In this document: piece by piece, positions 2,748 through 61,090 of the stretch
How the letters are laid out: the number at the start of each line of letters is the position of its first letter
Numbering within the stretch: position 1 is the first letter of the stretch
Assembly: GCA_036405895.1 (NCBI GenBank)
Contig: DASWWS010000001.1
Coordinates: 6,523 to 70,522, forward strand
Origin: Minisyncoccota bacterium
GTDB taxonomy: Bacteria > Patescibacteriota > Minisyncoccia > Phycocordibacterales > UBA9973
Direction: 5' to 3'
Length of the DNA stretch: 64,000 nt
The notes under the pieces: generated by a model
Database searches by the model: none
What the model was told of the DNA's origin: nothing
Seen by the model: only the letters and a program-made list of their open reading frames with translations
Made by a program: the position numbers and the translations under genes

Positions 2748-3269
2748 ATGTTGAAAAAAAATACCCAGACGGGTTTCACCCTTATAGAACTTCTTGTTGT
2801 TATAGCGGTGATTGGTATTTTGGCTTCCGTTATTCTTGCGTCGTTAAATAGTGCACGCAAAAAAGCGGCAGATGCAAAAATAAAAAGTGAACTAAAGCAA
2901 ATCTCAACAGCACTGGAGTTCTATTACGACAGCTACGGCTCCTATGTTGTTGCGGGCGGCGGATACGGGGGAGGCAACTATTCTTCCGGAGGCGGATTTG
3001 TCACCCTTGAAGACTCAGGGGGGAATTATACAAAGTCGATTACTAACCGTCTCGCTGAACTTGGTTTTCTTGGTACTGGCTTTAAGAACGAAGCAAATTA
3101 TATGGTGTATGTGTGCTTTGATGCCTATGGCATGCAGCGCTATGCGCTCTCCGCAACACTCAATAATCCTAGCGCTGCCGACATAGCCAATATTCAAACA
3201 ACCTGCAATGGGACAGGGTCCAATGGGACCTACTCTCATTATGGAAAAAACTATGCGATCAGCAATTAA
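2748..3269 (+). CDS. Type IV pilin-like protein (prepilin N-terminal methylation motif)
   Basis: N-terminus [20 protein letters not shown] is a class III signal with the conserved Glu at +5. The Gly-rich mature region follows. Confidence 0.7.
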   Translation: MLKKNTQTGFTLIELLVVIAVIGILASVILASLNSARKKAADAKIKSELKQISTALEFYYDSYGSYVVAGGGYGGGNYSSGGGFVTLEDSGGNYTKSITNRLAELGFLGTGFKNEANYMVYVCFDAYGMQRYALSATLNNPSAADIANIQTTCNGTGSNGTYSHYGKNYAISN

Positions 3270-3774
3270 ACAAAAAGGCTTCACTCTCATTGAATTATTG
3301 GTTGTTATCGCAGTGATAGGCATTTTGGCATCAGTTGTGCTAGCATCGCTTAATAGTGCACGAGGAAAAGCACGCGATGCTCGGCGGTTTTCGGATCTCA
3401 ATCAAATCTCTCTTGCACTGGAATTGTATTACGATGACTATGGAACATATCCTCAACTGCTCGCCTATATTTTCCCCAACCGTGCAGACCCGCAAGATGT
3501 GAACTGGACGGGCGCCTTTACAACAGCAATGCGGCCCTATATTAATCCGGTTCCGCAAGACCCGGCCGGCAGGCCCTATATGTACTCTTCGACCAATAGT
3601 GGACAAAAGTACGGCCTCATGACCGAAGTTGAAAGTACCGCAAACTATGCAAAATCCATTAACGATGGAGGAAGCTTTAATAATGGACAATACTATTACG
3701 AAGTAGGGTCCGCACCTACAGGATGCGGGCGCCTGGGTACAGAGTGGTGGGGAGCCACAACCATTAACTGTTAA
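3253..3774 (+). CDS. Type IV pilin-like protein
   Basis: [28 protein letters not shown] at the N-terminus. Start is chosen at the ATG overlapping the previous stop. Confidence 0.7.
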   Translation: MRSAIKQKGFTLIELLVVIAVIGILASVVLASLNSARGKARDARRFSDLNQISLALELYYDDYGTYPQLLAYIFPNRADPQDVNWTGAFTTAMRPYINPVPQDPAGRPYMYSSTNSGQKYGLMTEVESTANYAKSINDGGSFNNGQYYYEVGSAPTGCGRLGTEWWGATTINC

Positions 3775-3856
3775 GTAATACAGAGCACCTTTTCTCGTCT
3801 CACTACCATGAGTGCATATCCACTATTAAGGATATGGCCCGTGATATACTATTTTT

Positions 3857-4627
3857 ATGAGTGATTTAATTAACGAAAACAAACAAACCATTATCCGCGC
3901 AAGCATTATTATTGCAGTACTTCTCGGACTGTTTCTTCTTGTTGCAACTGCAGCAAAGCTGAAAGAGTACCGCTATATCGGTTCTGGAACACCGGCGGGG
4001 AACACTATCACCGTAACCGGTGAGGGGAACGTTGAACGCGCACCCGACACTGCACGCATGAGCTTTACTGTTCGTAGTGAGGCTGTGGAGGTGAATACAG
4101 CACAAGATGCAGTTGCGGAAAAAATTACAAAAATCAAGGCTGACCTTGAAATGGCTGGCATTGATGAAGACGATATCAGCACTGCAACGTACAATTCATA
4201 CCCGCAGTACACGTATCCAGCCAACCAGAAGCCGACACTTCGCGGATATGAAGTTGCGCAAGCGGTAACAGTGAAGGTCAAAGATCTCACACTTGTTGAA
4301 AATGTTATCAGTATCCTTGGAAACAATGGGGTGACCGATATGCAAGGCCCAAACTTCGGCTTTGATGACGACAAGGAGGTGGCACGCGAAGCTCGCGAAA
4401 ATGCTATTAAGGATGCAAAAGAGCAAGCAAAGAAACTTGCTGACGATTTGGGTGTAGACTTGGTCCGCATCGTTTCATTCAATGAACAGTCAGGAAGCAC
4501 TATGCCAATGCCGTATGGCCGGGAAATGATGATGGCGCAGGATGCAAAGGCAACCGGTGCTGCAAACATTCCGGTGGGAACCGCGGACATCAGTTCAACA
4601 GTGACTATTGTCTACGAAATCCGATAA
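3857..4627 (+). CDS. SIMPL/DUF541 family periplasmic protein (YggE-like)
   Basis: N-terminal TM helix, then the ITVTGEGNVERAPDTARMSFTVRSEA...YPQY pattern typical of SIMPL-domain proteins. Confidence 0.6.
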   Translation: MSDLINENKQTIIRASIIIAVLLGLFLLVATAAKLKEYRYIGSGTPAGNTITVTGEGNVERAPDTARMSFTVRSEAVEVNTAQDAVAEKITKIKADLEMAGIDEDDISTATYNSYPQYTYPANQKPTLRGYEVAQAVTVKVKDLTLVENVISILGNNGVTDMQGPNFGFDDDKEVAREARENAIKDAKEQAKKLADDLGVDLVRIVSFNEQSGSTMPMPYGREMMMAQDAKATGAANIPVGTADISSTVTIVYEIR

Positions 4628-4642
4628 TACTCTTGTAAAAAC

Positions 4643-4669
4643 GCCTAACGAGGACGGTCCTCGTTAGGC
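4643..4669. repeat. REP-like palindrome copy 1 (GCCTAACGAGGAC-G-GTCCTCGTTAGGC) acting as a bidirectional rho-independent terminator
   Basis: Perfect 13-bp inverted arms flanked by an A-run and a T-run. The same core recurs at 12267, 13018 and 30295. Confidence 0.75.
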
Positions 4670-4773
4670 GTTTTTTATAGGAAGTAAGGGGCTTGTAGGT
4701 TTTGAGGCAGTGTGGTATTGTATGTGCATACAGCCCCACGGGGCGGTTTTTAGTAAGACAGACAAACATTATT

Positions 4774-4950
4774 ATGGCAAAACTAGGATTTTTAAGACAA
4801 ACACGAAATGAAATGCGCCACGTTGTGTGGCCAAGCCGTGCGCGTACTGTTGCTTACACTCTCATTATCATTGGCCTTTCGCTTGCGCTTGGGTACTTCC
4901 TTTCCGGAGTAGACAGTGTATTTCGTGCAGGACTTCGCGCGCTTATTTAA
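4774..4950 (+). CDS. secE: Preprotein translocase subunit SecE
   Basis: 59 aa with a single C-terminal TM helix, immediately upstream of nusG (conserved secE-nusG synteny). Start set at the internal ATG (MAKLGF...). Confidence 0.65.
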   Translation: MAKLGFLRQTRNEMRHVVWPSRARTVAYTLIIIGLSLALGYFLSGVDSVFRAGLRALI

Positions 4951-4962
4951 TTAAAAAACCAT

Positions 4963-5511
4963 ATGGCTAAACAAGAACACACAGGAGAGAGGCACTGGTA
5001 CGCTATCCACACTTACTCAGGCTACGAAAACGCAGTATTGCGAAACCTTCGCCAGCGTATTGAAAGCCTCGGAATGGAGGACAAAATATTCAACGTTGTT
5101 GTTCCTATTGAAAAGAAAATCAAGATTAAGGGCGGCAAGCGCGTAGAGGTGGAAGAAAAGGTGTACCCAGGGTACGTTCTTGTAGACATGGTCGTGACCG
5201 ATGACTCATGGTTCGTGGTGCGCAACACTCCTCGTGTGACAGGCTTCGTTGGTGCAGGGGTTACTCCTGTTCCTCTTACTCAGAAAGAAATCGATTACCT
5301 GCTCGGGCAGATGAATAACGATGATGTGACTAAGCACACAATCGACCTTGAAGTAGGGGAGACAATCACTATTTCAGACGGTCCGTTTAAGGACTCTGAA
5401 GGCCGCGTGTCAGAAGTGGACTCAGAGCGCGGAAAGGTCAAGGTGATGGTATCCCTCTTCGGCCGAGAAACACCGGTAGAGCTCGACTTCCTCCAGGTAA
5501 AGAAGCTGTAA
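4963..5511 (+). CDS. nusG: Transcription termination/antitermination factor NusG
   Basis: NGN domain (WYAIHTYSGYEN) and a C-terminal KOW motif (GETITISDGPFKDSEGRV). Confidence 0.9.
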   Translation: MAKQEHTGERHWYAIHTYSGYENAVLRNLRQRIESLGMEDKIFNVVVPIEKKIKIKGGKRVEVEEKVYPGYVLVDMVVTDDSWFVVRNTPRVTGFVGAGVTPVPLTQKEIDYLLGQMNNDDVTKHTIDLEVGETITISDGPFKDSEGRVSEVDSERGKVKVMVSLFGRETPVELDFLQVKKL

Positions 5512-5518
5512 AATAAAA

Positions 5519-5545
5519 AGACCGACCCTTCAGGGCGGTCTTTTG
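5519..5545 (+). terminator. Rho-independent terminator after nusG
   Basis: GACCGACCC-ttca-GGGCGGTC hairpin followed by TTTT. Confidence 0.6.
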
Positions 5546-5558
5546 CTATACTGACTCT

Positions 5559-6098
5559 ATGAAAAACCGAGGATTTACCCTCATTGAATTATTGGTTGTC
5601 ATTGCGGTGATTGGAATTTTATCGAGCGTTGTTCTTGCATCATTAAACAGTGCGAGGGTAAAGGGGCGCGATACGAAGCGCAAGAGCGATTTGCATGAAA
5701 TGCGCAACGCGCTCGAGCTGTATTACAGCACCAACGGCACGTACCCTGTTTCAACAAACAGCAATTGGCACTTGAGCTGTGAGGCCGCATGGAATACCTC
5801 AAGCAATCCGCTCTATACTGCATTGGTGCCGACCTATATCAGCAGACTTCCCGTAGATCCGGTGAACGCTCCGTGCGCCAACGGTCCGTGGTCGGGGCCG
5901 GGATCGGCGGCAAGCCCGGTACAGCAATACAATTATGCGTATGCAAGCAACGGCTCCGTGTATGACTTTCTGGGAGCACTGGAAAATCAGTCCGACCCAT
6001 TGCGCTGCCAGACTCGGGATTGGAAATATCATCAAGGGGGAGAGCTTTCATTGTGTCGCTCCCACACATACTCTTACAGTTTAATTGCAGACCATTAG
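5559..6098 (+). CDS. Type IV pilin-like protein
   Basis: [25 protein letters not shown]-terminus. Confidence 0.7.
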
Positions 6099-6099
6099 T

Positions 6100-6624
6100 A
6101 TGAAAAAACAAAGAGGTAAACAAGGCTTCACGTTAATAGAACTTCTCGTCGTGATTGCAATCATTGGCATTCTTGCGTCAGTTGTTCTTGCGTCCCTTAA
6201 CAGTGCGCGAGTGAAAGCGCGAGATGCTCGCAGGAAAGCTGATATGCAGCAGATGACGTTGGCAATACATTCGTATTACGCTGATTTCGGCAATTATCCG
6301 CCAAGCAGCGGCGCAACGATGCCTAATAATAACTGGGCAAACAGCAGTGACGCGAGTTGGGCAACGCTTGGTATACACATGCAGCCCTACATGCCCACCC
6401 TTCCCAAAGACCCGTCGCAAACGACAAACCCGAATATTTGGGCCGCATCAACAAGTGGGGGATACGCCTATTCTTATGTCTTGTGTCCGGACAGTTATAT
6501 GCTCGTCTACCATCTTGAAACTGCGAGCGGCCCTGATGCAGGGGCTATGTGCGGGGGTACGCTATACCAATACGGCGGAACCGGGCCGAATACTTCAGTA
6601 AAAACAACGGGACAGAAAAGATAG
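6100..6624 (+). CDS. Type IV pilin-like protein
   Basis: [29 protein letters not shown]-terminus. Start set just after the previous stop. Confidence 0.7.
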
Positions 6625-10604: not shown

Positions 10605-12266
10605 ATGGAAGAAACTATTAGAACCCTTGTTGCAGATGCGCTCAAAGATTCCTTTGGGCTTGAGGGTATAGCAATTGTGGTTGAGGAGCCAAAGGACCTC
10701 GCGCACGGCGACTATGCTACAAGCGTCGCTCTGTCTGTATCAAAAACGCTTGAGAAAAATCCAAGGGAAATTGCCAACACTCTTGCGGCTCTTCTTAATG
10801 AGAAAAAGGGAAATGACATAGCAGAAGTTACGGTTGCAGGACCGGGCTTTATTAACTTCACCCTCGCACCTGTTTATTTCGCCAAAACCCTTGAAACCAT
10901 TCTCGAGAAACAGAATGAATGGGGGAGCAATGAATTGCACAAAGGCAAAAAGATTTTGGTGGAGCACTCAAGCCCCAACCTCTTTAAGCCCTTTCACATC
11001 GGCCACGTGATGAACAACACAATAGGGCAGTCGCTTGTGGAGCTTGCTCGCGCATCCGGTGCGGCGGTGACTACCACTTCATTTCCGTCCGATATTTCGC
11101 TCGGAGTGGCGAAAGCCATTTTCATTCTTCTTGAAAAGGGAAATGCAGAGATTTCTATTGACATGCTCGGACAGGCGTATGTTGAGGGCACAAAGCGCTA
11201 CGATGAAGACGAGACAACTCATATGCGCATCAAGGAAATAGCAGATCATTTGTACGCACAAACACCATCAGATGAATACGAATTTTTTCAGGCCTGCAAG
11301 GCACTCAATATCGCATACTTCGAAAGCATTCTTTCTCGCTTAGGATCTGATTTTGACTCGTACATCTATGAAAGCGAAGCAGGGGTAGAAGGAAAGAAAA
11401 TCGTACTTAAGAATACTCCAGGTGTATTTACCGAGAGCGAGGGTGCAGTCGTGTATGTACCGGCTGAAGATCGCAAAGACATTAATACTGCAGTATTCAT
11501 CAACTCTCAAGGCAACCCGACATATGAAGCAAAAGATATTGGGCTTCTTTCAATGAAGTTTAATCGCTATGCGCCTGACCTGTCGCTTTTTGTTACCGAC
11601 AACCAGCAGGTTCCGCACTTTGCAGTGGTGCTTGATGCAGCAAAGCATATCAATGATGAGTGGGCATCCAAGAGCATCCATATCCACCACGGGCGCATGT
11701 CATTCAAGGGTGAAAAAATGTCGTCGCGTCTTGGCGGGGTACCCGTTGCTCAGGAGATGATGGACGCTGTTGGCGAGGAAGCTGCTGTGCGGGCAAAGGA
11801 TAAAGATATCGTACAAGCAGACGCGATAGCGATAGCGGCAATCAAGTTTTCAATCCTTCGTGCAGCGGCAGGAAAGGATATCAACTTCGACCCGGAAACT
11901 TCGCTTTCGTTTGAAGGCGACTCAGGGCCATACCTGCAGTATTCAACCGTGCGCGCACAATCTATTCTTGCAAAAGGAGGAGTCGGTACTCCAGTACTTC
12001 CCGAGAATTGGACTACAACTACTCTTGAAAAACAGCTCATCCATTTTCCGGAAGTAGTGGCGCACGCAATAGAGGAGTGGTCCCCGCACTTTTTAGTGAC
12101 CTATCTGCTCGAGCTCTCTCAGAGCTTCAACAGCTGGTACGGCAACACCAAAGTGATTGATGACACTGCCGAGTCTCCTTACAAACTTGCCCTTACCGCC
12201 GCTTTTGCGCAAACAATGAAAAACGGCCTGAAACTCCTCGCCCTCCCATTGCCCTCAAAAATGTAA
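10605..12266 (+). CDS. argS: Arginyl-tRNA synthetase
   Basis: Class I HIGH motif (PFHIGHVMN), KMSK-like KMSSR, ArgRS-type N-terminal domain and C-terminal ...KM end. 553 aa. Confidence 0.8.
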   Translation: MEETIRTLVADALKDSFGLEGIAIVVEEPKDLAHGDYATSVALSVSKTLEKNPREIANTLAALLNEKKGNDIAEVTVAGPGFINFTLAPVYFAKTLETILEKQNEWGSNELHKGKKILVEHSSPNLFKPFHIGHVMNNTIGQSLVELARASGAAVTTTSFPSDISLGVAKAIFILLEKGNAEISIDMLGQAYVEGTKRYDEDETTHMRIKEIADHLYAQTPSDEYEFFQACKALNIAYFESILSRLGSDFDSYIYESEAGVEGKKIVLKNTPGVFTESEGAVVYVPAEDRKDINTAVFINSQGNPTYEAKDIGLLSMKFNRYAPDLSLFVTDNQQVPHFAVVLDAAKHINDEWASKSIHIHHGRMSFKGEKMSSRLGGVPVAQEMMDAVGEEAAVRAKDKDIVQADAIAIAAIKFSILRAAAGKDINFDPETSLSFEGDSGPYLQYSTVRAQSILAKGGVGTPVLPENWTTTTLEKQLIHFPEVVAHAIEEWSPHFLVTYLLELSQSFNSWYGNTKVIDDTAESPYKLALTAAFAQTMKNGLKLLALPLPSKM

Positions 12267-12291
12267 CCTAACGAGGACGGTCCTCGTTAGG
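12267..12291. repeat. REP-like palindrome copy 2 (5' flank of RAYT gene)
   Basis: CCTAACGAGGAC-G-GTCCTCGTTAGG, same core as 4643. Confidence 0.75.
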
Positions 12292-12338
12292 TAGATTTCT
12301 TGAAAAGTATTTCATCTTCGAAATGGTATACAGGAATA

Positions 12339-13022
12339 ATGAAACGAAAAGAACCGTTTGTTATCGGAGAGTATTACCATATTTATAATAGAGGAATTGA
12401 TAAGCGTATTATCTTTTTGGATACACAAGACTATCGGAGATTTGTACAGCTGTTGTATGTAGCAAACAGTACCAATAGCTTTGAGTTGGGAAATTTTTTC
12501 ATTAACAATAAAAAAACTTTTGAAGACCTTTTTCATATAGAAAGAGGAGAGCCGTTGGTGGCAATAGGGGCGTGGGCTTTGATGCCTAACCATTTTCATT
12601 TAGTGGTGCGGGAGTGTACTGAAGGCGGCATTACTACCTTTATGAAAAAACTCGGAACGGCGTACTCGATGTATTTCAATATAAAGTACAAAAGAACAGG
12701 AAGCTTGTTTGGAGGACTGTTTAAGTCAAAACATATTGAAACAGATATTTATCTTCAGCACCTGTTCGGCTATGTGCATCTTAACGCGCTTGATCTTATG
12801 GATAGCTACTGGGAGTCTTCAATAACGGAGAGCTTGCCTTCCATGTGGATGAGTTTTCTTACCAAGTACAGCTATTCAAGCTTTCATGAATACAACACCA
12901 CTGAGGCACGATTAGAATCAAACATTTTAGATAAGGAGAAATTCCCCGAGTATTTTGCAGACACGCATTCTTTTGAAAACTTTGTTACCAACTACCTTAT
13001 GTATCGGGAGGAGCTCACCTAA
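12339..13022 (+). CDS. IS200/IS605-family Y1 (HUH) transposase of the REP-associated RAYT type
   Basis: HUH motif NHFHLVV. The catalytic-Tyr region QHLFGYVHLNALDL aligns with E. coli RayT HHVDYIHINPLKHG. N-terminal YHIYNRG. Flanked by inverted REP copies. Confidence 0.7.
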   Translation: MKRKEPFVIGEYYHIYNRGIDKRIIFLDTQDYRRFVQLLYVANSTNSFELGNFFINNKKTFEDLFHIERGEPLVAIGAWALMPNHFHLVVRECTEGGITTFMKKLGTAYSMYFNIKYKRTGSLFGGLFKSKHIETDIYLQHLFGYVHLNALDLMDSYWESSITESLPSMWMSFLTKYSYSSFHEYNTTEARLESNILDKEKFPEYFADTHSFENFVTNYLMYREELT

Positions 13023-13042
13023 CGAGGACCGTCCTCGTTAGG
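13018..13042. repeat. REP-like palindrome copy 3 (3' flank of RAYT gene, opposite orientation, centre C)
   Basis: CCTAACGAGGAC-C-GTCCTCGTTAGG overlapping the RAYT stop codon. Confidence 0.75.
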
Positions 13043-13092
13043 CTGGCCCGGGTGGATTGATTAAATAGGGGGGAGAGGGTACTATTGGGGAC

Positions 13093-13569
13093 ATGATACA
13101 CGAAACAGAAGAGCGAAGCCTTATTATCATCAAGCCCGACGCAATCCAGCGCAGCTTGGTGGGGCAAATTATTACCCGTTTTGAAAATAAAGGATTGAAA
13201 ATTATCGGCTTAAAAATGATGCACCTTTCGGATGTTGTAGTGGAAGACCACTACAGCCACATCAAAGACAAGCCCTTTTTCCCGCGCATTAAGAAGTTTA
13301 TGACCTCGTCTCCGGTAATTGTGATGGCAGTTGCGGGAATCAAGGCAATCGACAGCATCCGCATCATTGTCGGCCCTACAAAAAGCTATGAAGCAGCAGC
13401 AGGAACGCTTCGCGGGGACTTGGCGCTTTCAATGCAGTCCAATGTTGTGCACGCATCTGACACCATAGAGAACGCTCAAGCCGAGATTAAGCGCTTTTTT
13501 GAGGATAATGAGATCGTTGACTACGATAAAATTGACACCACCTACATCTTTTCTGACGAATTGATGTAA
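13093..13569 (+). CDS. ndk: Nucleoside diphosphate kinase
   Basis: ERSLIIIKPDAIQR and NVVHASD (active-site His) are present. Length is typical. Confidence 0.9.
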   Translation: MIHETEERSLIIIKPDAIQRSLVGQIITRFENKGLKIIGLKMMHLSDVVVEDHYSHIKDKPFFPRIKKFMTSSPVIVMAVAGIKAIDSIRIIVGPTKSYEAAAGTLRGDLALSMQSNVVHASDTIENAQAEIKRFFEDNEIVDYDKIDTTYIFSDELM

Positions 13570-30247: not shown

Positions 30248-30270
30248 CGATACGGATAAATGAGATAAGA

Positions 30271-30293
30271 AAAACCCGCAGATGCGGGTTTTT
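30271..30293. terminator. Terminator hairpin between convergent rpsR and efp
   Basis: AAAAACCCGCA-gat-GCGGGTTTTT. Confidence 0.7.
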
Positions 30294-30294
30294 C

Positions 30295-30360
30295 TTATCT
30301 AACGAGGACCGTCCTCGTTAGATAATTTTCTCTCAGAAGGACGGTCCTTCTGAGAGAAAA
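30295..30360. repeat. Tandem pair of REP-like palindromes sharing the AGGAC(C/G)GTCCT core
   Basis: TTATCTAACGAGGACCGTCCTCGTTAGATAA (copy 4 of the REP) is followed by TTTTCTCTCAGAAGGACGGTCCTTCTGAGAGAAAA, which has the same core but different arms. Confidence 0.7.
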
Positions 30361-30978: not shown

Positions 30979-31073
30979 GGTGATATATGATAATTATTGA
31001 GAGATTGTAGCCCAGGGGAGGGCAAAAGTCCATAAATAAAAGAGGCGTACGGATATATCCGTACGCCTCGCGT

Positions 31074-38771: not shown

Positions 38772-38823
38772 TTCTAATTATTGATTGTTAAAAGTTCTTA
38801 GGTAACTGACTTTAAGTCAAAAC

Positions 38824-38852
38824 AAAAAACCACCCCTTGGGGTGGTTTTTTG
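38824..38852 (+). terminator. Rho-independent terminator after surface protein gene
   Basis: AAAAAACCACCCC-ttgg-GGTGGTTTTTTG. Confidence 0.7.
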
Positions 38853-38880
38853 TTTACCTGATTTTTGCTATAGTGGGGCA

Positions 38881-54596: not shown

Positions 54597-54759
54597 TATA
54601 TTATTTCAATTTACCGGTCCAGCTGTGTCGAAAATTTTCCACACAGAAAATTTTCGACCAGGTGGTTCCATTGAAAATACTCACCCCTTACTTTTACAAA
54701 AACTCCCCAACAGGGGAGTTTTTGCTTTGTTGACTATTTTTATGGTTGGTGTACTCTAG

Positions 54760-56725: not shown

Positions 56726-57568
56726 AGCCGGACCAAATGAGTATTGCAGAAACAACAGCAACATATTTCTCGGCATAGCCCTGACAATTTGTCGCCTGGG
56801 CCGCCGAGAAATCGGCGGCTTTTCTGTGAGAATCAAATGGATACGGTTATTTGATAAAAACAATCCTGTCCTTCCGTGGCATTTCTCTGAGTAAGAGAAG
56901 AGCGCAACTTCCCAACTGATAAGGTAGGAAGCGGTGCTGCTGCAGGTAGGAAGAGACAGAGCCGTCCAATAGAAAACATCACTTCGAGCGGTCGAAGGAT
57001 GGCGGACGTTAAAATAACCTCTCAATTGTTATGAATTGAGAGGAACATGATTTCTAGATTTCCTAATAGGAAATAAGAGCATATGGTGGATGCCTAGGTT
57101 CTACATGGCGATGAAAGACGCGAGTGGCGGCGATACGCTTCGGTGAGGTGCCTCTAACCTTTGACCCGGAGATTTCTGAATGGGGAAACCCAATAGAGCA
57201 AACCTCTATTACTGACGACCGTAAGAGTTGTCGGAGCGCACCCCGGGAAGTGAAACATCTCAGTACCGGGAGGAAAAGAAAACAATGCAGCGTAGCTGCG
57301 ATATTCCCCAAGTAGCGGCGAGCGAAAAGGGAGGAGCCCAAACCGGTTTCTTCGGAAACCGGGGTTGTAGGATAGAAACGTCGTTTTACGAGAAGAGTTA
57401 CAAAGTGTTTGTATAGAAGAAGTTGTTGGAAACCAACGTCATAGCGGGTGATAGCCCCGTATTCGAAATACAGATACCTCTTTTGTTTCTACTCCTGAGT
57501 ACTTCAAGACACGAATAGCTTGGAGGAATCTGCCGGAACTAACCGGTAAGGCTAAATACATTGTAGAA

Positions 57569-57613
<45 letters not shown>

Positions 57614-58187
57614 GAGAGGGGAGTGAAATAGTACTGAAACCATATGCTTACAAGGAGTCGGAGCGGGTATTTATATCCGTCACGGCGTGCCTATTGAAGA
57701 ATGAGCCAACGAGTTCATAAGTGCGGCTCGGCTAAGGAATAAAGTTCCGGAGCCAGAGGGAAACCAAGTGTTAATAGCGCGTAATTGGTCGTACTTATGA
57801 GACCCGAAGCCAGGTGAGCTACCCATGAGCAGGATGAAGTGCGCAGAGATGCGCATGGAGGTCCGAACCGGTAAGTCGTACAACGCTTTCGGATGACTTG
57901 TGGGTTGGAGTGAAAAGCTAATCGAACCTGGTAATAGCTGGTTCTCTCCGAAATAGCTTTAGGGTTAGCGTATCGTGTTCCCCTTGGGGGTAGAGCACTG
58001 GAAGGTTTCGACAGGGAGCAATCTCGCGACGCCTATCAAACTCCGAATACCAAGGATTAAAAACGATGCAGTTAGACTACGGGGGCTAAGCTCCGTCAGT
58101 CAAAAGGGAAACAGCCCAGATCTCTAAATAAGGTCCCTAAATTCATGCTAAGTGCGTCTTAAGGAGGTAAGATTTCTCAGACAATGA

Positions 58188-58219
<32 letters not shown>

Positions 58220-58299
58220 GAAAGCGTAACAGCTCACTCATCAAGAGATCTCGCGCCGCAGATAATCGGGGCTAAGCATGGTACCGAATTTGAGGGCTC

Positions 58300-58524
58300 G
58301 CGAACTTCATAAAGGAAGAAAGTTTCTTCTTTATGATGTTTCGAGGAGTGCTAAAAACCGTCAATCAAAGTAAAAGAGTTGGAACCTTAAAAAAGTTGTC
58401 GACTCCTGTTTAAATTCATCTCACTTAAGAAGAATGTTTAAATAACTCTGAACGATGGATGCACTCTTCGAAATCCAATAGAGGAAGATACACAAAAAAT
58501 ATCTTCCTTCTTTTATGAAGTTCG
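58300..58524 (+). other. Helix-45-type intervening sequence (extended AT-rich stem-loop) in 23S
   Basis: Inserted after GTACCGAATTTGAGGGCTCG. Terminal complementary arms CGAACTTCATAAAGGAAGAA...TTCTTCCTTCTTTTATGAAGTTCG. No group I P7 signature. Confidence 0.5.
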
Positions 58525-59269
58525 GGAGCGGTAGGAGAGTATTCCACTCTTGCTGTGAAGCCAAAGGCGTGAGCCATGGTGGAGCGTGTGGAAGTAAGAA
58601 TGTTGGCACAAGTAACCGCAAGCAAGGTGAGATCCCTTGCCGCCGAAAAACTAAGGTTTCCTGGGCAATGACGATCATCCCAGGGTTAGTCGGGTCCTAA
58701 GGTAATGGCGAAAGCCGCAGCCGATGGACAGTGGGTTAATATTCCCACACTTCTGTAATATTCGATGGAGTGACGAAGGATAGTAGCGTGAGCCGGTTAT
58801 TGGATTCCGGTGGGCATATCGAAGGTGGGGCGCAGGTAAATCCGTGCCCCTAGCTTAAATGCTGAACTAACAGGTACGACCCGATAGCTGGTACGCCAGC
58901 GGTAAGTCACGTGAGCATGCTTCCGAGAAAAGCTTCTAAGATTAGTATTATAGAACCCGTACCGTAAACCGACACAGGTAGTTAGGTCGAGTAGACCAAG
59001 GCGAACGAGTGAGAGATCCCCAAGGAACTCGGCAAACAAGCAGCCGTAACTTCGGAATAAGGCTTCCCCCCATAATGGTGGATTTAATGTATTTATATGT
59101 TGAATTCACCATTATGGGGGGCGCAGCGAAAGATTTCCTGGCAACTGTTTATCAAAAACACAGCTCCCTGCGAACTCGTAAGAGTATGTATAGGGGGTGA
59201 CACCTGACCAATGCCAGAAGGTTAATTACGGGTGGTGCGATTATATCAAGCTGACCTGTACAAGCCCTG

Positions 59270-59304
<35 letters not shown>

Positions 59305-59305
59305 T

Positions 59306-59514
59306 CTGGGTTTTTCTTTTCGGAGAAGAACCTAGAACGGACTAGGACCGCGTATAGAAAACGATAAACAATTAAATACAATAATCATTTACATTTCAAG
59401 CTACCTACCATGTCGTAATACATGGATAGTCCATTGTGATTAACGAGAGACCAACGTCACAGACCCGAACTTCGCAAGGAGAGGGTTAAGAGAGAGTCCA
59501 ACTGAGAGGAATAG
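59306..59514 (+). other. Putative small group I intron in 23S at the site equivalent to E. coli ~1931
   Basis: Interrupts GGTCCTAAGGT | ... | (T)TGAGCGAAATTCCTTGTCGGG. Has P7-like GGACTA / ATAGTCC pairing, ends in G, and contains no ORF. Confidence 0.5.
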
Positions 59515-59824
59515 TTGAGCGAAATTCCTTGTCGGGTAAGTTCCGACGCGCACGAATGGTGTAATGACTGGGAAGCTGTCTCGGGGATTTGCTCGGTGAA
59601 AATACAATACCGGTGAAGATGCCGGTTACCTGCAGTTAGACGAAAAGACCCCGGAAGCTTTACTATAGTTTGGTATTGGGTATGTTTGTGTAATACGTAG
59701 CATAGGAAGGAGACTTTGAAGCGCCGATTTCGGTCCGCGTGGAGTCGTCAGTGAAATACTTCTTTTTACATGGGCATACTCTAACAACAGCGGAAAAAAC
59801 GCCGTTGGACAGTGCCTGATTGGT

Positions 59825-59865
<41 letters not shown>

Positions 59866-60118
59866 GTTCAAAGGTCAGCTAGGCGCGAATGGAAACCGTG
59901 CCGATAGTGCAATGGCATAAGCTGGCTTGACTGTAAGGGGGCCATCCCGAGCAGGTGCGAAAGCAGAACATAGTGAACCGACAATTCGCATTAGATGCGG
60001 TTGAAGATTAACGGATAGAAGCTACTCCGGGGATAACAGGCTAGTTCCGCCTAAGAGTTCATATCGACGGCGGAGTTCGGCACCTCGATGTCGGCTCACC
60101 TTATCCCGGGGCTGGAGA

Positions 60119-60151
<33 letters not shown>

Positions 60152-60180
60152 AAGGTACGCGAGCTGGGTTCAGACCGTCC

Positions 60181-60593
60181 TGTAATGAAATAGATTTATC
60201 TAGATCATTGCAGGACCCGTCTGAATCCCGAGGAAATTTTTGTTCATTTTTTACAATAAAATGAACAGCAGAATAATTCTGTTTTAGTCTTTTCGTTTAA
60301 AATGTATACAAGTGATCCTGCAATTTCACTTGTATATAAAAGATATAGTTTGTTCGTGCTAAGGCTTAGAACAAACAAAGTGAGAACCATCTTATTACGG
60401 CGGTCTTCAGTGGCGACATTGAATGACATGCTCAACTAATATCGGTAAAACCCACAATAGAAATTATTGGGGGCAATACCGAGGGAAGGGTAGTAATACC
60501 CACCCGTAGAGACTACACGTTGAGGTGCTCGCAATTTACTTTGCTGAGTACAAGATATAGTCCGTTCCATACAGTAATGTGTGAAAAGAAGCG
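60181..60593 (+). other. Putative group I intron in 23S at the site equivalent to E. coli ~2593-2595 (peptidyl-transferase region)
   Basis: Interrupts GGGTTCAGACCGTCC | ... | TAAGACAGGTTGGTC. Contains GTAGAGACTAC and the hallmark ACAAGATATAGTCCG (compare Tetrahymena AAGAUAUAGUCGGACC). Ends in G. No homing endonuclease ORF. Confidence 0.6.
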
Positions 60594-60733
60594 TAAGACA
60601 GGTTGGTCTCCTATCTACTGCAGGCGTTGATATTTGAGGAAATTCGCTCCTAGTACGAGAGGACCGGAGTGAACGAACCTCTGGTGTACGGGCTCTAGCG
60701 CCAGCTGGACCGCCCGGTAGCTATGTTCGGAAT

Positions 60734-60766
<33 letters not shown>

Positions 60767-60925
60767 AGTTCCAAGATTAGATATCGTTTGAGGGCCGTGA
60801 GAGATGATCACGTTGATAGGCACTAAGTGGAAGCGTAGTAATATGTTGAGCTGAGGTGTACTAATTGCCCGATTCCTATTAGGAAATCTGGAAATCATAC
60901 AGAAATAATTTGTTCGAGTCCACTG

Positions 60926-61038
60926 TCTTGGTGGTTTGTCGCAGGGGTCACACCTCTTCCCATTCCGACCAGAGAAGTTAAGACCTGTAGAACCGATGAT
61001 ACTCAGTTTTCTGGGGAAAGTAGGTAGCTGCCAGGACT
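60926..61038 (+). rRNA. rrf: 5S ribosomal RNA
   Basis: CCGACCAGAGAAGTTAAGACCTGTAGAACCGATGATACTCAG matches the 5S loop B/C consensus. About 113 nt. A terminator follows at 61061-61090. Confidence 0.85.
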
Positions 61039-61060
61039 GTGGACTTGAATAAGTTTCATA

Positions 61061-61090
61061 AAAAAGCACCCGAAAGGGTGCTTTTTTGCT
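61061..61090 (+). terminator. Rho-independent terminator after 5S rRNA
   Basis: AAAAAAGCACCC-gaaa-GGGTGCTTTTTTG. Confidence 0.75.

Follow-up and report, generated by a model that had tools for sequence, protein, structure and literature searches.

A RAYT-like Y1 gene bracketed by its own perfect palindromes in a Patescibacteria genome

REP-associated tyrosine transposases (RAYTs), together with the repetitive extragenic palindromic (REP) sequences they are named after, are the standard example of transposase domestication in bacteria, with a role for the host that is still unexplained. Patescibacteria, or candidate phyla radiation (CPR) bacteria, have genomes of approximately 1 Mb that hold very little repeated or mobile DNA. 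Here we describe a locus in a 64-kb stretch of contig DASWWS010000001.1 from a Minisyncoccota bacterium (hereafter the window, meaning the whole stretch analyzed), where the only Y1 gene, encoding a protein of the RAYT kind, lies between two copies of a 25-bp perfect palindrome. Related Patescibacteria loci mostly carry their own genome's version of the palindrome on both sides of the homologous gene. We therefore consider it likely that gene and palindromes form a unit akin to the RAYT/REP systems known as REPtrons, consisting of a single-copy, domesticated Y1 nuclease and its cognate short perfect palindromes, in a large clade specific to Patescibacteria. No published description of REP/RAYT systems in CPR bacteria was found in the literature searched, the one match being a K07491 gene mentioned only in passing in an archaeon, and the family constitutes a sizeable branch of the known RAYT/REP kind that has apparently gone undescribed.

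The described systems offer several precedents. REPs have been reported within coding regions and nested in longer palindromes, and RAYT-like genes exist with terminal inverted repeats (TIRs) at a fixed distance (PMC3733652). In-frame REP insertions have moreover been found in tnpA-REP genes (PMC6006769), and REPs that are perfect palindromes are processed in vitro by their TnpA-REP (PMC8266576). Of particular relevance is subclass 2.1 of the TnpA-Y1 proteins, which displays NH[YF]H or NHVH, Y[IV]HLNP or YIELNP, a length of ~238 aa and a proximal tail with S-S, and which has been reported without REP-like hairpins (PMC6006769). This subclass (group 1), the largest of the RAYT-like lineages, is not known to have a DNA partner.

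Palindromes on both sides of the gene

The original prediction for this locus placed two 25-bp palindromes, centered on G and C, respectively, around the gene, the second one extending over the stop codon, and all of these elements are indeed present in the sequence (Table 1). The upstream copy begins immediately past the stop codon of argS (10605-12266), and the neighbor on the other side is ndk (13093-13569). The 23-nt core has four exact matches in the window, compared with 0.00 expected from 100 dinucleotide-preserving shuffles: in addition to the two copies listed originally, we recovered two exact solo copies and an adjoining variant. No decayed copies with 1-5 mismatches to the palindrome were found in the window.

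We then compared the locus with three loci fetched by the exact protein and 80 from metagenomes, the sharing of flanking sequence being assessed over 79 related Patescibacteria loci. Homologs of the protein number more than 2000, are 52-61% identical among the best 120, and every named one originates from Patescibacteria. A string of at least 12 nt is common to both gene flanks in 63 of the 79 loci, and is usually a palindrome specific to that locus, such as CTAGCAAGAAC-C-GTTCTTGCTAG or TAAGCAAGGAC-C-GTCCTTGCTTA, with CATAGGCGAGGCCTATG in more distant members. Perfect palindromes are concentrated around the gene, with a density of 5.46 per kb in the nearest 120 nt as compared to 0.31 per kb elsewhere. 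Upstream, a palindrome is located within 120 nt in 61 of 68 loci, ending 24-31 nt before the ATG in 31 of these 61; downstream, one is present in 54 of 80 loci, and 30 of these have it beginning before the stop codon is complete. Furthermore, the more similar the proteins, the more similar the half-sites, whose identity climbs from ~0.48 to ~0.8 (Mantel r = 0.39, a value reached in 0 of 2000 permutations), a correlation to which shared ancestry contributes.

The two flanking copies face the same way at 29 loci, are inverted relative to each other at 29 and are ambiguous at five, and the opposite orientation stressed originally consequently holds for the window but not as a rule of the family. 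A search for REP doublets had also been suggested, and such inverted doublets, REPIN-like and with 0-3 nt between the units, do occur in more distant members. Locus L015 has six copies of its palindrome in tandem upstream of the gene. Many copies display unique, perfectly palindromic extensions, with arms of up to 21 nt (L024, L027 and L032, as well as the window copy at 4637-4675).

As single-stranded DNA (ssDNA), the palindromic elements of the window are predicted to fold with -11.7 to -20.7 kcal/mol (z = -5 to -8.7). The upstream copy (-12.6 kcal/mol, z = -6.3) has a terminator-like score on both strands. The solo copy at 4637-4675, placed between a SIMPL-domain gene and secE, has the shape of a bidirectional intrinsic terminator (-20.7 kcal/mol, z = -8.7). 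The other one sits between convergent genes, right after a conventional terminator hairpin (30263-30300), and the variant that abuts it has the center AGGACGGTCCT in common with the core and three changes per arm, every one of them compensated. The sequences flanking the four copies differ, with GGTAG following the upstream copy only, and no family was matched when the palindromes were scanned against Rfam.

Three other accounts of the repeat were discarded. The resemblance of the center CCGTCC to the CGTC tag of the Di Nocera repeats was dismissed, as the tag is terminal there and relatives here have GAACCGTTC, and so was a restriction-site explanation, as the core differs among genomes. Insertion of a solo copy into the loop of an older terminator was rejected for the SIMPL site, because the ordinary terminator found there in genomes lacking the Y1 gene between argS and ndk is unrelated in sequence. 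Ordinary bidirectional terminator-like hairpins, with an A-run, a G+C stem and a T-run, are found in the window at 30263-30300, 38820-38855, 54697-54724 and 61060-61087. These set the baseline from which the REP-based hairpins (4637-4675 and 30295-30360) depart. A 28-nt loop-less palindrome at 31042-31069 (GAGGCGTACGGATA/TATCCGTACGCCTC) is unrelated to the REP.

Table 1. The Y1 gene, its promoter-like element and the palindrome copies in the window
Feature	Coordinates	Strand	Details
Gene for a putative Y1/HUH tyrosine nuclease of the RAYT kind, 227 aa	12339..13022	+	ATG at 12339; TAA at 13020-13022
Extended -10 promoter-like element, TGgTATACA	12324..12332	+	Ends 6 nt before the ATG; from the ATG-anchored family profile
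Upstream copy, 25-bp perfect palindrome CCTAACGAGGAC-G-GTCCTCGTTAGG	12267..12291		Center G at 12279; pairing reaches 12266-12292
Downstream copy, CCTAACGAGGAC-C-GTCCTCGTTAGG	13018..13042		Center C at 13030; includes the stop codon of the Y1 gene, TAA 13020-13022
Solo copy, core 4644-4668, center G (23-nt core 4645-4667)	4637..4675		Within a 39-nt perfect palindrome, AAAAACG[core]CGTTTTT
Solo copy, core 30299-30321, center C	30295..30325		Own palindromic extension TTAT/ATAA
Variant palindrome, TTTTCTCTCAGAAGGAC-G-GTCCTTCTGAGAGAAAA	30326..30360		Abuts the solo copy 30295-30325

The protein and its promoter

The open reading frame (ORF) encodes 227 aa, rather than the 228 aa given originally. An in-frame TTG at 12300 would yield an alternative product of 240 aa, but we took the ATG at 12339 as the start because homologs begin at the ATG (MKRKEPFV aligned with MLRKDPFV). 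The exact protein match is NCBI HEY0979800.1, recorded as 'MAG TPA: transposase [Candidatus Paceibacterota bacterium]'. In the databases, genes of the family are labeled 'transposase', 'hypothetical protein' or the COG-derived 'RayT', and the palindromes carry no annotation.

Both Y1/HUH signatures of the original prediction were recovered. NHFHLVV spans residues 84-90 (nt 12588-12608, with NHFH at nt 12588-12599 and the HUH motif at residues 85-87), and GYVHLNALD residues 144-152, including the putative catalytic Tyr145 (nt 12771-12773). The tyrosine is followed by a helical C-terminal tail of ~80 aa with a Y-S-S motif at residues 179-181. In the proposed hidden Markov model check, Pfam PF01797 (Y1_Tnp) matched residues 74-147 of the window protein at a marginal 24.0 bits (gathering cut-off 23), and most of the 120 listed homologs carry a precomputed PF01797 assignment. 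No other Pfam match was detected in the window protein, and hence no distal helix-turn-helix domain. All 80 aligned homologs match NCBIfam REP_Tyr_transpos, with a best E of 6.2e-11. N84, H85, F86, H87, Y145 and N149 are invariant in 80 homologs, and the consensus of the tyrosine motif in the family is YIHLNP, in agreement with the Y-x-x-x-N-P of class 2.

Structure prediction was exploited to shed further light on the fold. The AlphaFold model built from an 80-sequence alignment (predicted local distance difference test, pLDDT, 87.3; predicted template modeling score, pTM, 0.87; a first model from 19 sequences had a pLDDT of 59) has as its best match in the Protein Data Bank (PDB) 4ER8, the E. 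coli RAYT with a REP hairpin, which is also the sole one below E = 1e-3. Next come the TnpA proteins of IS608 and ISDra2, with a probability of ~1.0. As modeled, the window protein displays the Y1/HUH fold with its beta-alpha-beta-beta-alpha-beta-alpha core, its His-hydrophobic-His pair and the tyrosine on the helix that follows. Congruent with this, hhalign against E. coli RayT places NHFH on HMH, LFGGLFKS on IWQPRFWE and YVHLNA on YIYINP (E = 1.9e-3). The family profile also aligns by hhalign with a Sporomusa plasmid protein of the subclass 2.1 architecture (Y1_Tnp plus Bac_DnaA_C) with a probability of 98% and E = 2.6e-13; by profile, the family is closest to subclass 2.1 (the TIRYT type), not to the proteobacterial RAYT type. 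An insertion of ~26 aa between helix A and strand 2 is specific to the CPR family.

An ATG-anchored profile of 70 homologous loci has the consensus TGnTATAAT at -15 to -7 and TTGCxA at -35 to -30. T at -12 is present in 50, A at -11 in 57 and T at -7 in 53 of the 70 loci, and the T at -15 and G at -14 of the extended -10 element in 41 and 37, respectively. The -35 hexamer of the profile is the right arm of the palindrome, and in about half of the loci the upstream copy overlaps the -35 box at a fixed distance. Since the -10 box stops 6 nt short of the ATG and a Shine-Dalgarno sequence is generally absent, the Y1 mRNA is predicted to be leaderless, and is probably so or nearly so. In the window, the palindrome is located 20 nt farther upstream, with a gap of 46-47 nt to the ATG, and only the extended -10 element is present; a simple sigma-70 scan upstream of the gene in the window returned no full promoter, the promoter being deduced from the family profile.

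Inheritance and signs of mobility

Close relatives of the window were located through ArgS. One of them, L099 (ArgS 82% by BLASTP), holds the Y1 ortholog at the identical argS-ndk site and is the sole other member of the 90% cluster, beyond which the next homolog is 61% identical. Between the window and L099, the Y1 proteins are 89.9% identical (synonymous divergence, dS, 1.11; ratio of nonsynonymous to synonymous divergence, dN/dS, 0.052), with corresponding values of 82.6%, 1.40 and 0.087 for argS and of 93.0%, 0.77 and 0.061 for ndk. Analogously, the divergence among L011, L013 and L015 is 75/65/59% for Y1 versus 71/66/71% for PilM and 74/73/77% for PilB. No plasmid or phage relatives above 31% identity were found. 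In these respects, the Y1 gene resembles a host gene that is passed on vertically, and purifying selection acts on it.

The downstream copy and the SIMPL solo copy are identical in the window and L099, including the center base, despite synonymous saturation, and the outer stem of the SIMPL copy has undergone compensated changes (ACG/CGT versus CCA/TGG). In L097 and L101, which have no Y1 gene between argS and ndk, an ordinary terminator hairpin takes the place of the SIMPL copy. Identical palindrome copies are present in seven assemblies of the same species. The upstream copy of L099 is a half-site (11466-11545), in which the left arm CCTAACGAGGAC is followed by CACCCCCGCTCA. The string CCACCCCC follows argS both in this half-site region and in the cassette-less L097.

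The location of the gene varies by genome, from between argS and ndk here to between pilM and pilN in L011 and L013 and between a pilin gene and pilD in L015. In L097 (10783-11271) and L101 (11730-12236), the argS-ndk slot is occupied by a gene for 162-168 aa with a PaaX central Cas2-like domain (PF20803, 47 bits), the boundary of the variable segment being no more than ~12 nt from the palindromes. The slot looks like a modular exchange point, because all four combinations of middle-gene type and downstream-spacer type occur among the window, L099, L097 and L101. Long perfect palindromes unrelated to the REP are located just upstream of ndk in the sisters (L099 12270-12299, L101 12242-12273 and L097 11279-11316), comprising an ACTCAAA...TTTGAGT family with arms of 15 and a 38-nt palindrome with arms of 19. 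Homologs of the Y1 gene are often found within type IV pilus clusters, at varied positions: besides those of L011, L013 and L015, the gene lies by pilD in L023 and by pilC in L032. Pilin-like (N_methyl) genes are also present 6-9 kb upstream of the Y1 gene in the window (~2750-6620). This placement could stem from common descent among close relatives, or from a genuine connection with a ssDNA-handling machine.

Copies are likewise found inside genes. Among more distant family members, four Y1 genes contain the locus-specific palindrome in frame at residues ~55-62 (L043 6174, L048 6165, L077 6162 and L086 4277), inside a segment of ~26 aa that has no counterpart in non-CPR relatives, and a fifth carries it in frame after the HUH motif (L084 1889). 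Scanning a genome collection for the window palindrome recovered perfect copies in other CPR metagenome-assembled genomes (MAGs), at L002 4846-4870, L003 2054-2078 and L001 7779-7799. Two of the three belong to one Minisyncoccia MAG, in frame in tsaD and intergenic near rplB, and the third lies inside the gene of a secreted 326-aa repeat protein of a Curtissbacteria MAG; the coding copies read ..TRTVLV... No tsaD ortholog without the palindrome was present among the fetched loci, and the in-frame tsaD copy may be either an insertion or a replacement.

Elsewhere in the window, a 23S rRNA match on the forward strand (57063-60884) measures 3822 nt compared to 2925 nt for the Rfam model, equivalent to one or more insertions of ~900 nt in all. 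No ORF of at least 120 aa was found inside this match, and the 5S rRNA comes next (60927-61036).

Interpretation and comparison with described systems

How may such a unit operate? By analogy with TnpA-REP of E. coli and with IS200/IS605, the protein would bind the hairpin of the palindrome in ssDNA, as exposed at a replication fork, in a transcription bubble or in a cruciform. It would then cut beside the hairpin via a 5'-phosphotyrosine link, with subsequent rejoining of the DNA, again by analogy (PMC8266576), and the 21-25-nt palindrome may thereby be copied, moved or re-homogenized. Solo copies, doublets in inverted orientation and copies lying in frame within genes would all follow from such an activity. 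The flanking copies appear to be built into expression of the gene: the upstream copy would, in most relatives, supply the -35 box (TTGCxA) of a promoter for a leaderless mRNA, its hairpin could stop read-through, and bound protein could repress its own gene, and the downstream copy, which carries the stop codon, may act as a terminator hairpin. Solo copies with A- and T-runs may in turn serve host operons as co-opted bidirectional terminators. With a 25-nt perfect hairpin and a protein of 227 aa, the pair is small enough for direct in vitro testing.

Several observations weigh against such a REPtron-like unit. Starting with the protein, it reaches 25.1 bits with NCBIfam NF047646 (REP_Tyr_transpos), for which the equivalog cut-off is 80 and the score of the window protein the only bit score read, and a sequence-profile search of the PDB with a 19-sequence alignment returned nothing at E <= 1. 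The W-Q guide-recognition motif is absent from the window protein, which has L-F-G-G / F-G in its place, and in its tyrosine motif, YVHLNA, the N-P of the family is changed to N-A. The protein is moreover a putative nuclease or transposase, by analogy with the studied enzymes. Turning to the repeats, no GT[AG]G tag was found on them, and no flanking palindromes were present at the three nearest non-CPR relatives checked, which have the subclass 2.1 architecture. As the center base is the only asymmetry of the element and its orientation is random (29:29), it is puzzling how a strand-specific enzyme would discriminate between the strands. A Minisyncoccia sister MAG has two perfect palindromes and no close Y1 gene on record. 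Finally, solo copies at distances above 200 nt number 18 per 457 kb around the genes of the relatives, many of them within 600 bp. Classical REP families are far more abundant than these few dispersed copies.

The core of the original prediction holds, with much stronger support from the comparison than from this one locus. The bracketing of a RAYT gene by its own palindrome is supported by the 63 loci with shared flanks, by the Mantel correlation and by the match to 4ER8, but the protein is not of the proteobacterial RAYT type (25 versus 80 bits). Similarly, the suggested REP dispersal in a CPR-like genome is real in that further copies exist and the repeat is over-represented, but modest, with two solos and one variant in the 64 kb of the window and 18 solos per 457 kb around the relatives' genes.

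A host function for the Y1/palindrome system, or else a very tight truce, is likely, because the gene is under purifying selection, the palindromes are perfect across species, the copies are integrated with promoter and stop codon, and some are probably reused as operator-free terminators of host operons. A more far-reaching proposal, which we put forward tentatively and regard as doubtful, is that of an undescribed, ancient class of vertically inherited RAYT-like nucleases across Paceibacteria/Minisyncoccia, kept in bacterial genomes that are among the most streamlined known, with the host job, as opposed to a selfish one, of making, keeping perfect and now and then re-seeding palindromes that serve as terminators or insulators, also at the promoter and stop codon of the nuclease gene. 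Such a job would account for palindromes that are perfect to the base despite saturated synonymous sites, for the compensated outer stems and for the low copy number. If true, it would be the first tie of the 'REP-less' subclass 2.1 / group 1 lineage to a cognate hairpin, and would offer a handle on the role of this lineage.

Alternatively, the protein may be a pure regulator, a Y1-like factor that binds DNA sequence-specifically and has ceased to cut or move it, with the palindromes as operator and terminators of a small regulon. The low copy number would fit such a role, as would an upstream copy that keeps a fixed distance and covers the -35 box at roughly half of the loci. The window solos, situated next to A- and T-runs at the 3' ends of genes, would fit as well, one of them being kept in place with compensated stem changes. 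However, none of the 80 diverged sequences departs from the metal-binding histidines or the tyrosine, and dN/dS amounts to 0.05, which argues that catalysis, beyond binding, is maintained. In-frame copies in the Y1 gene, tsaD and the gene of the secreted repeat protein, inverted doublets and the tandem array of six are also unexpected for operators or terminators, and we deem this option unlikely.

Quite improbable, in our assessment, is an autonomous insertion sequence of the IS200 kind, where the palindromes would be end hairpins of a 776-bp unit (12267-13042) that transposes as a whole, leaving the solo copies as footprints or miniature derivatives. The likeness to IS200 is apparent, as each of the two consists of a single Y1 gene flanked by hairpins in a compact unit of ~0.7-0.8 kb, and in each the 5' hairpin can block read-through. 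Here the promoter is internal as well. The different sites of the gene among genomes and the unrelated PaaX/Cas2-like gene in the slot of the sisters, where the variable segment ends close to the palindromes, point in the same direction. In contrast, IS200 encodes ~150 aa with Y-x-x-x-Q, occurs in multiple near-identical copies, is often plasmid-borne and has distinct ends (PMC6006769), none of which applies here. There is one copy in the 64 kb of the window and no near-identical copy in other species, the next homolog being 61% identical; the 227-aa protein belongs to class 2 (Y-x-x-x-N-P); and close relatives are not on plasmids or phages. The ends are identical without a fixed relative orientation, as opposed to the distinct one-strand hairpins of IS200/IS605. 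Divergence and dS moreover match those of the housekeeping neighbors, and the site of the ortholog is kept in L099 and in L011/L013. Chance or an assembly artifact, with unrelated hairpins around a degenerate transposase-like ORF, could appeal to a Pfam score just 1 bit over the cut-off, but is refuted by the four copies against none in shuffles, the same sequence in seven independent assemblies of the species and the equal layout in dozens of independent metagenomes.

Returning to the REPtron-like unit, its closest counterpart by structure is the REPtron itself (RAYT/TnpA-REP, as in E. coli RayT, 4ER8). The two have in common the Y1/HUH fold with the HUH and Y-x-x-x-N-P motifs, an apparently single-copy, host-like gene bracketed by hairpin repeats that co-vary with the protein, and extragenic extra copies, inverted doublets and in-frame copies in genes. 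Nevertheless, the family here is without the GT[AG]G tag, has F-G for W-Q, and is remote in sequence (25 versus 80 bits, and an identity of 11% between the window protein and 4ER8 across the structural alignment). Its repeats are short perfect palindromes, with the center base as sole asymmetry, no preferred orientation and a low copy number, the flanking copies are fused to promoter and stop codon, and the protein has the helical tail of 80 aa. Rickettsia palindromic elements resemble the palindromes in that they reside in frame in coding regions without breaking them, but are longer, CGTC-tagged and without a dedicated transposase (PMC3733652), whereas a cognate Y1 gene adjoins here.

By profile, the nearest lineage is subclass 2.1 (Quentin et al. 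2018; group 1 of Bertels), including TIRYT/TIRtron (Di Nocera et al. 2013). Shared with it are NH[YF]H and Y[IV]HLNP, the length of ~230 aa and the proximal tail with S-S (~226 aa and Y-S-S in the window family). In TIRtrons, too, inverted repeats accompany the gene at a set distance, some being self-complementary, and solo copies are moderately abundant (PMC3733652). The two identical palindromes here are formally equivalent to TIRs. Different from subclass 2.1, the CPR family is without the distal helix-turn-helix (Bac_DnaA_C, HTH_23 or HTH_28), of which the Sporomusa relative has Bac_DnaA_C, is without the GGGGWSAS repeat motif, displays F-G for W[EQ]/F-Q and includes the insertion of ~26 aa. 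Aggregated, the Y1 lineage is nearest to subclass 2.1, yet comes with an unmistakable cognate hairpin.

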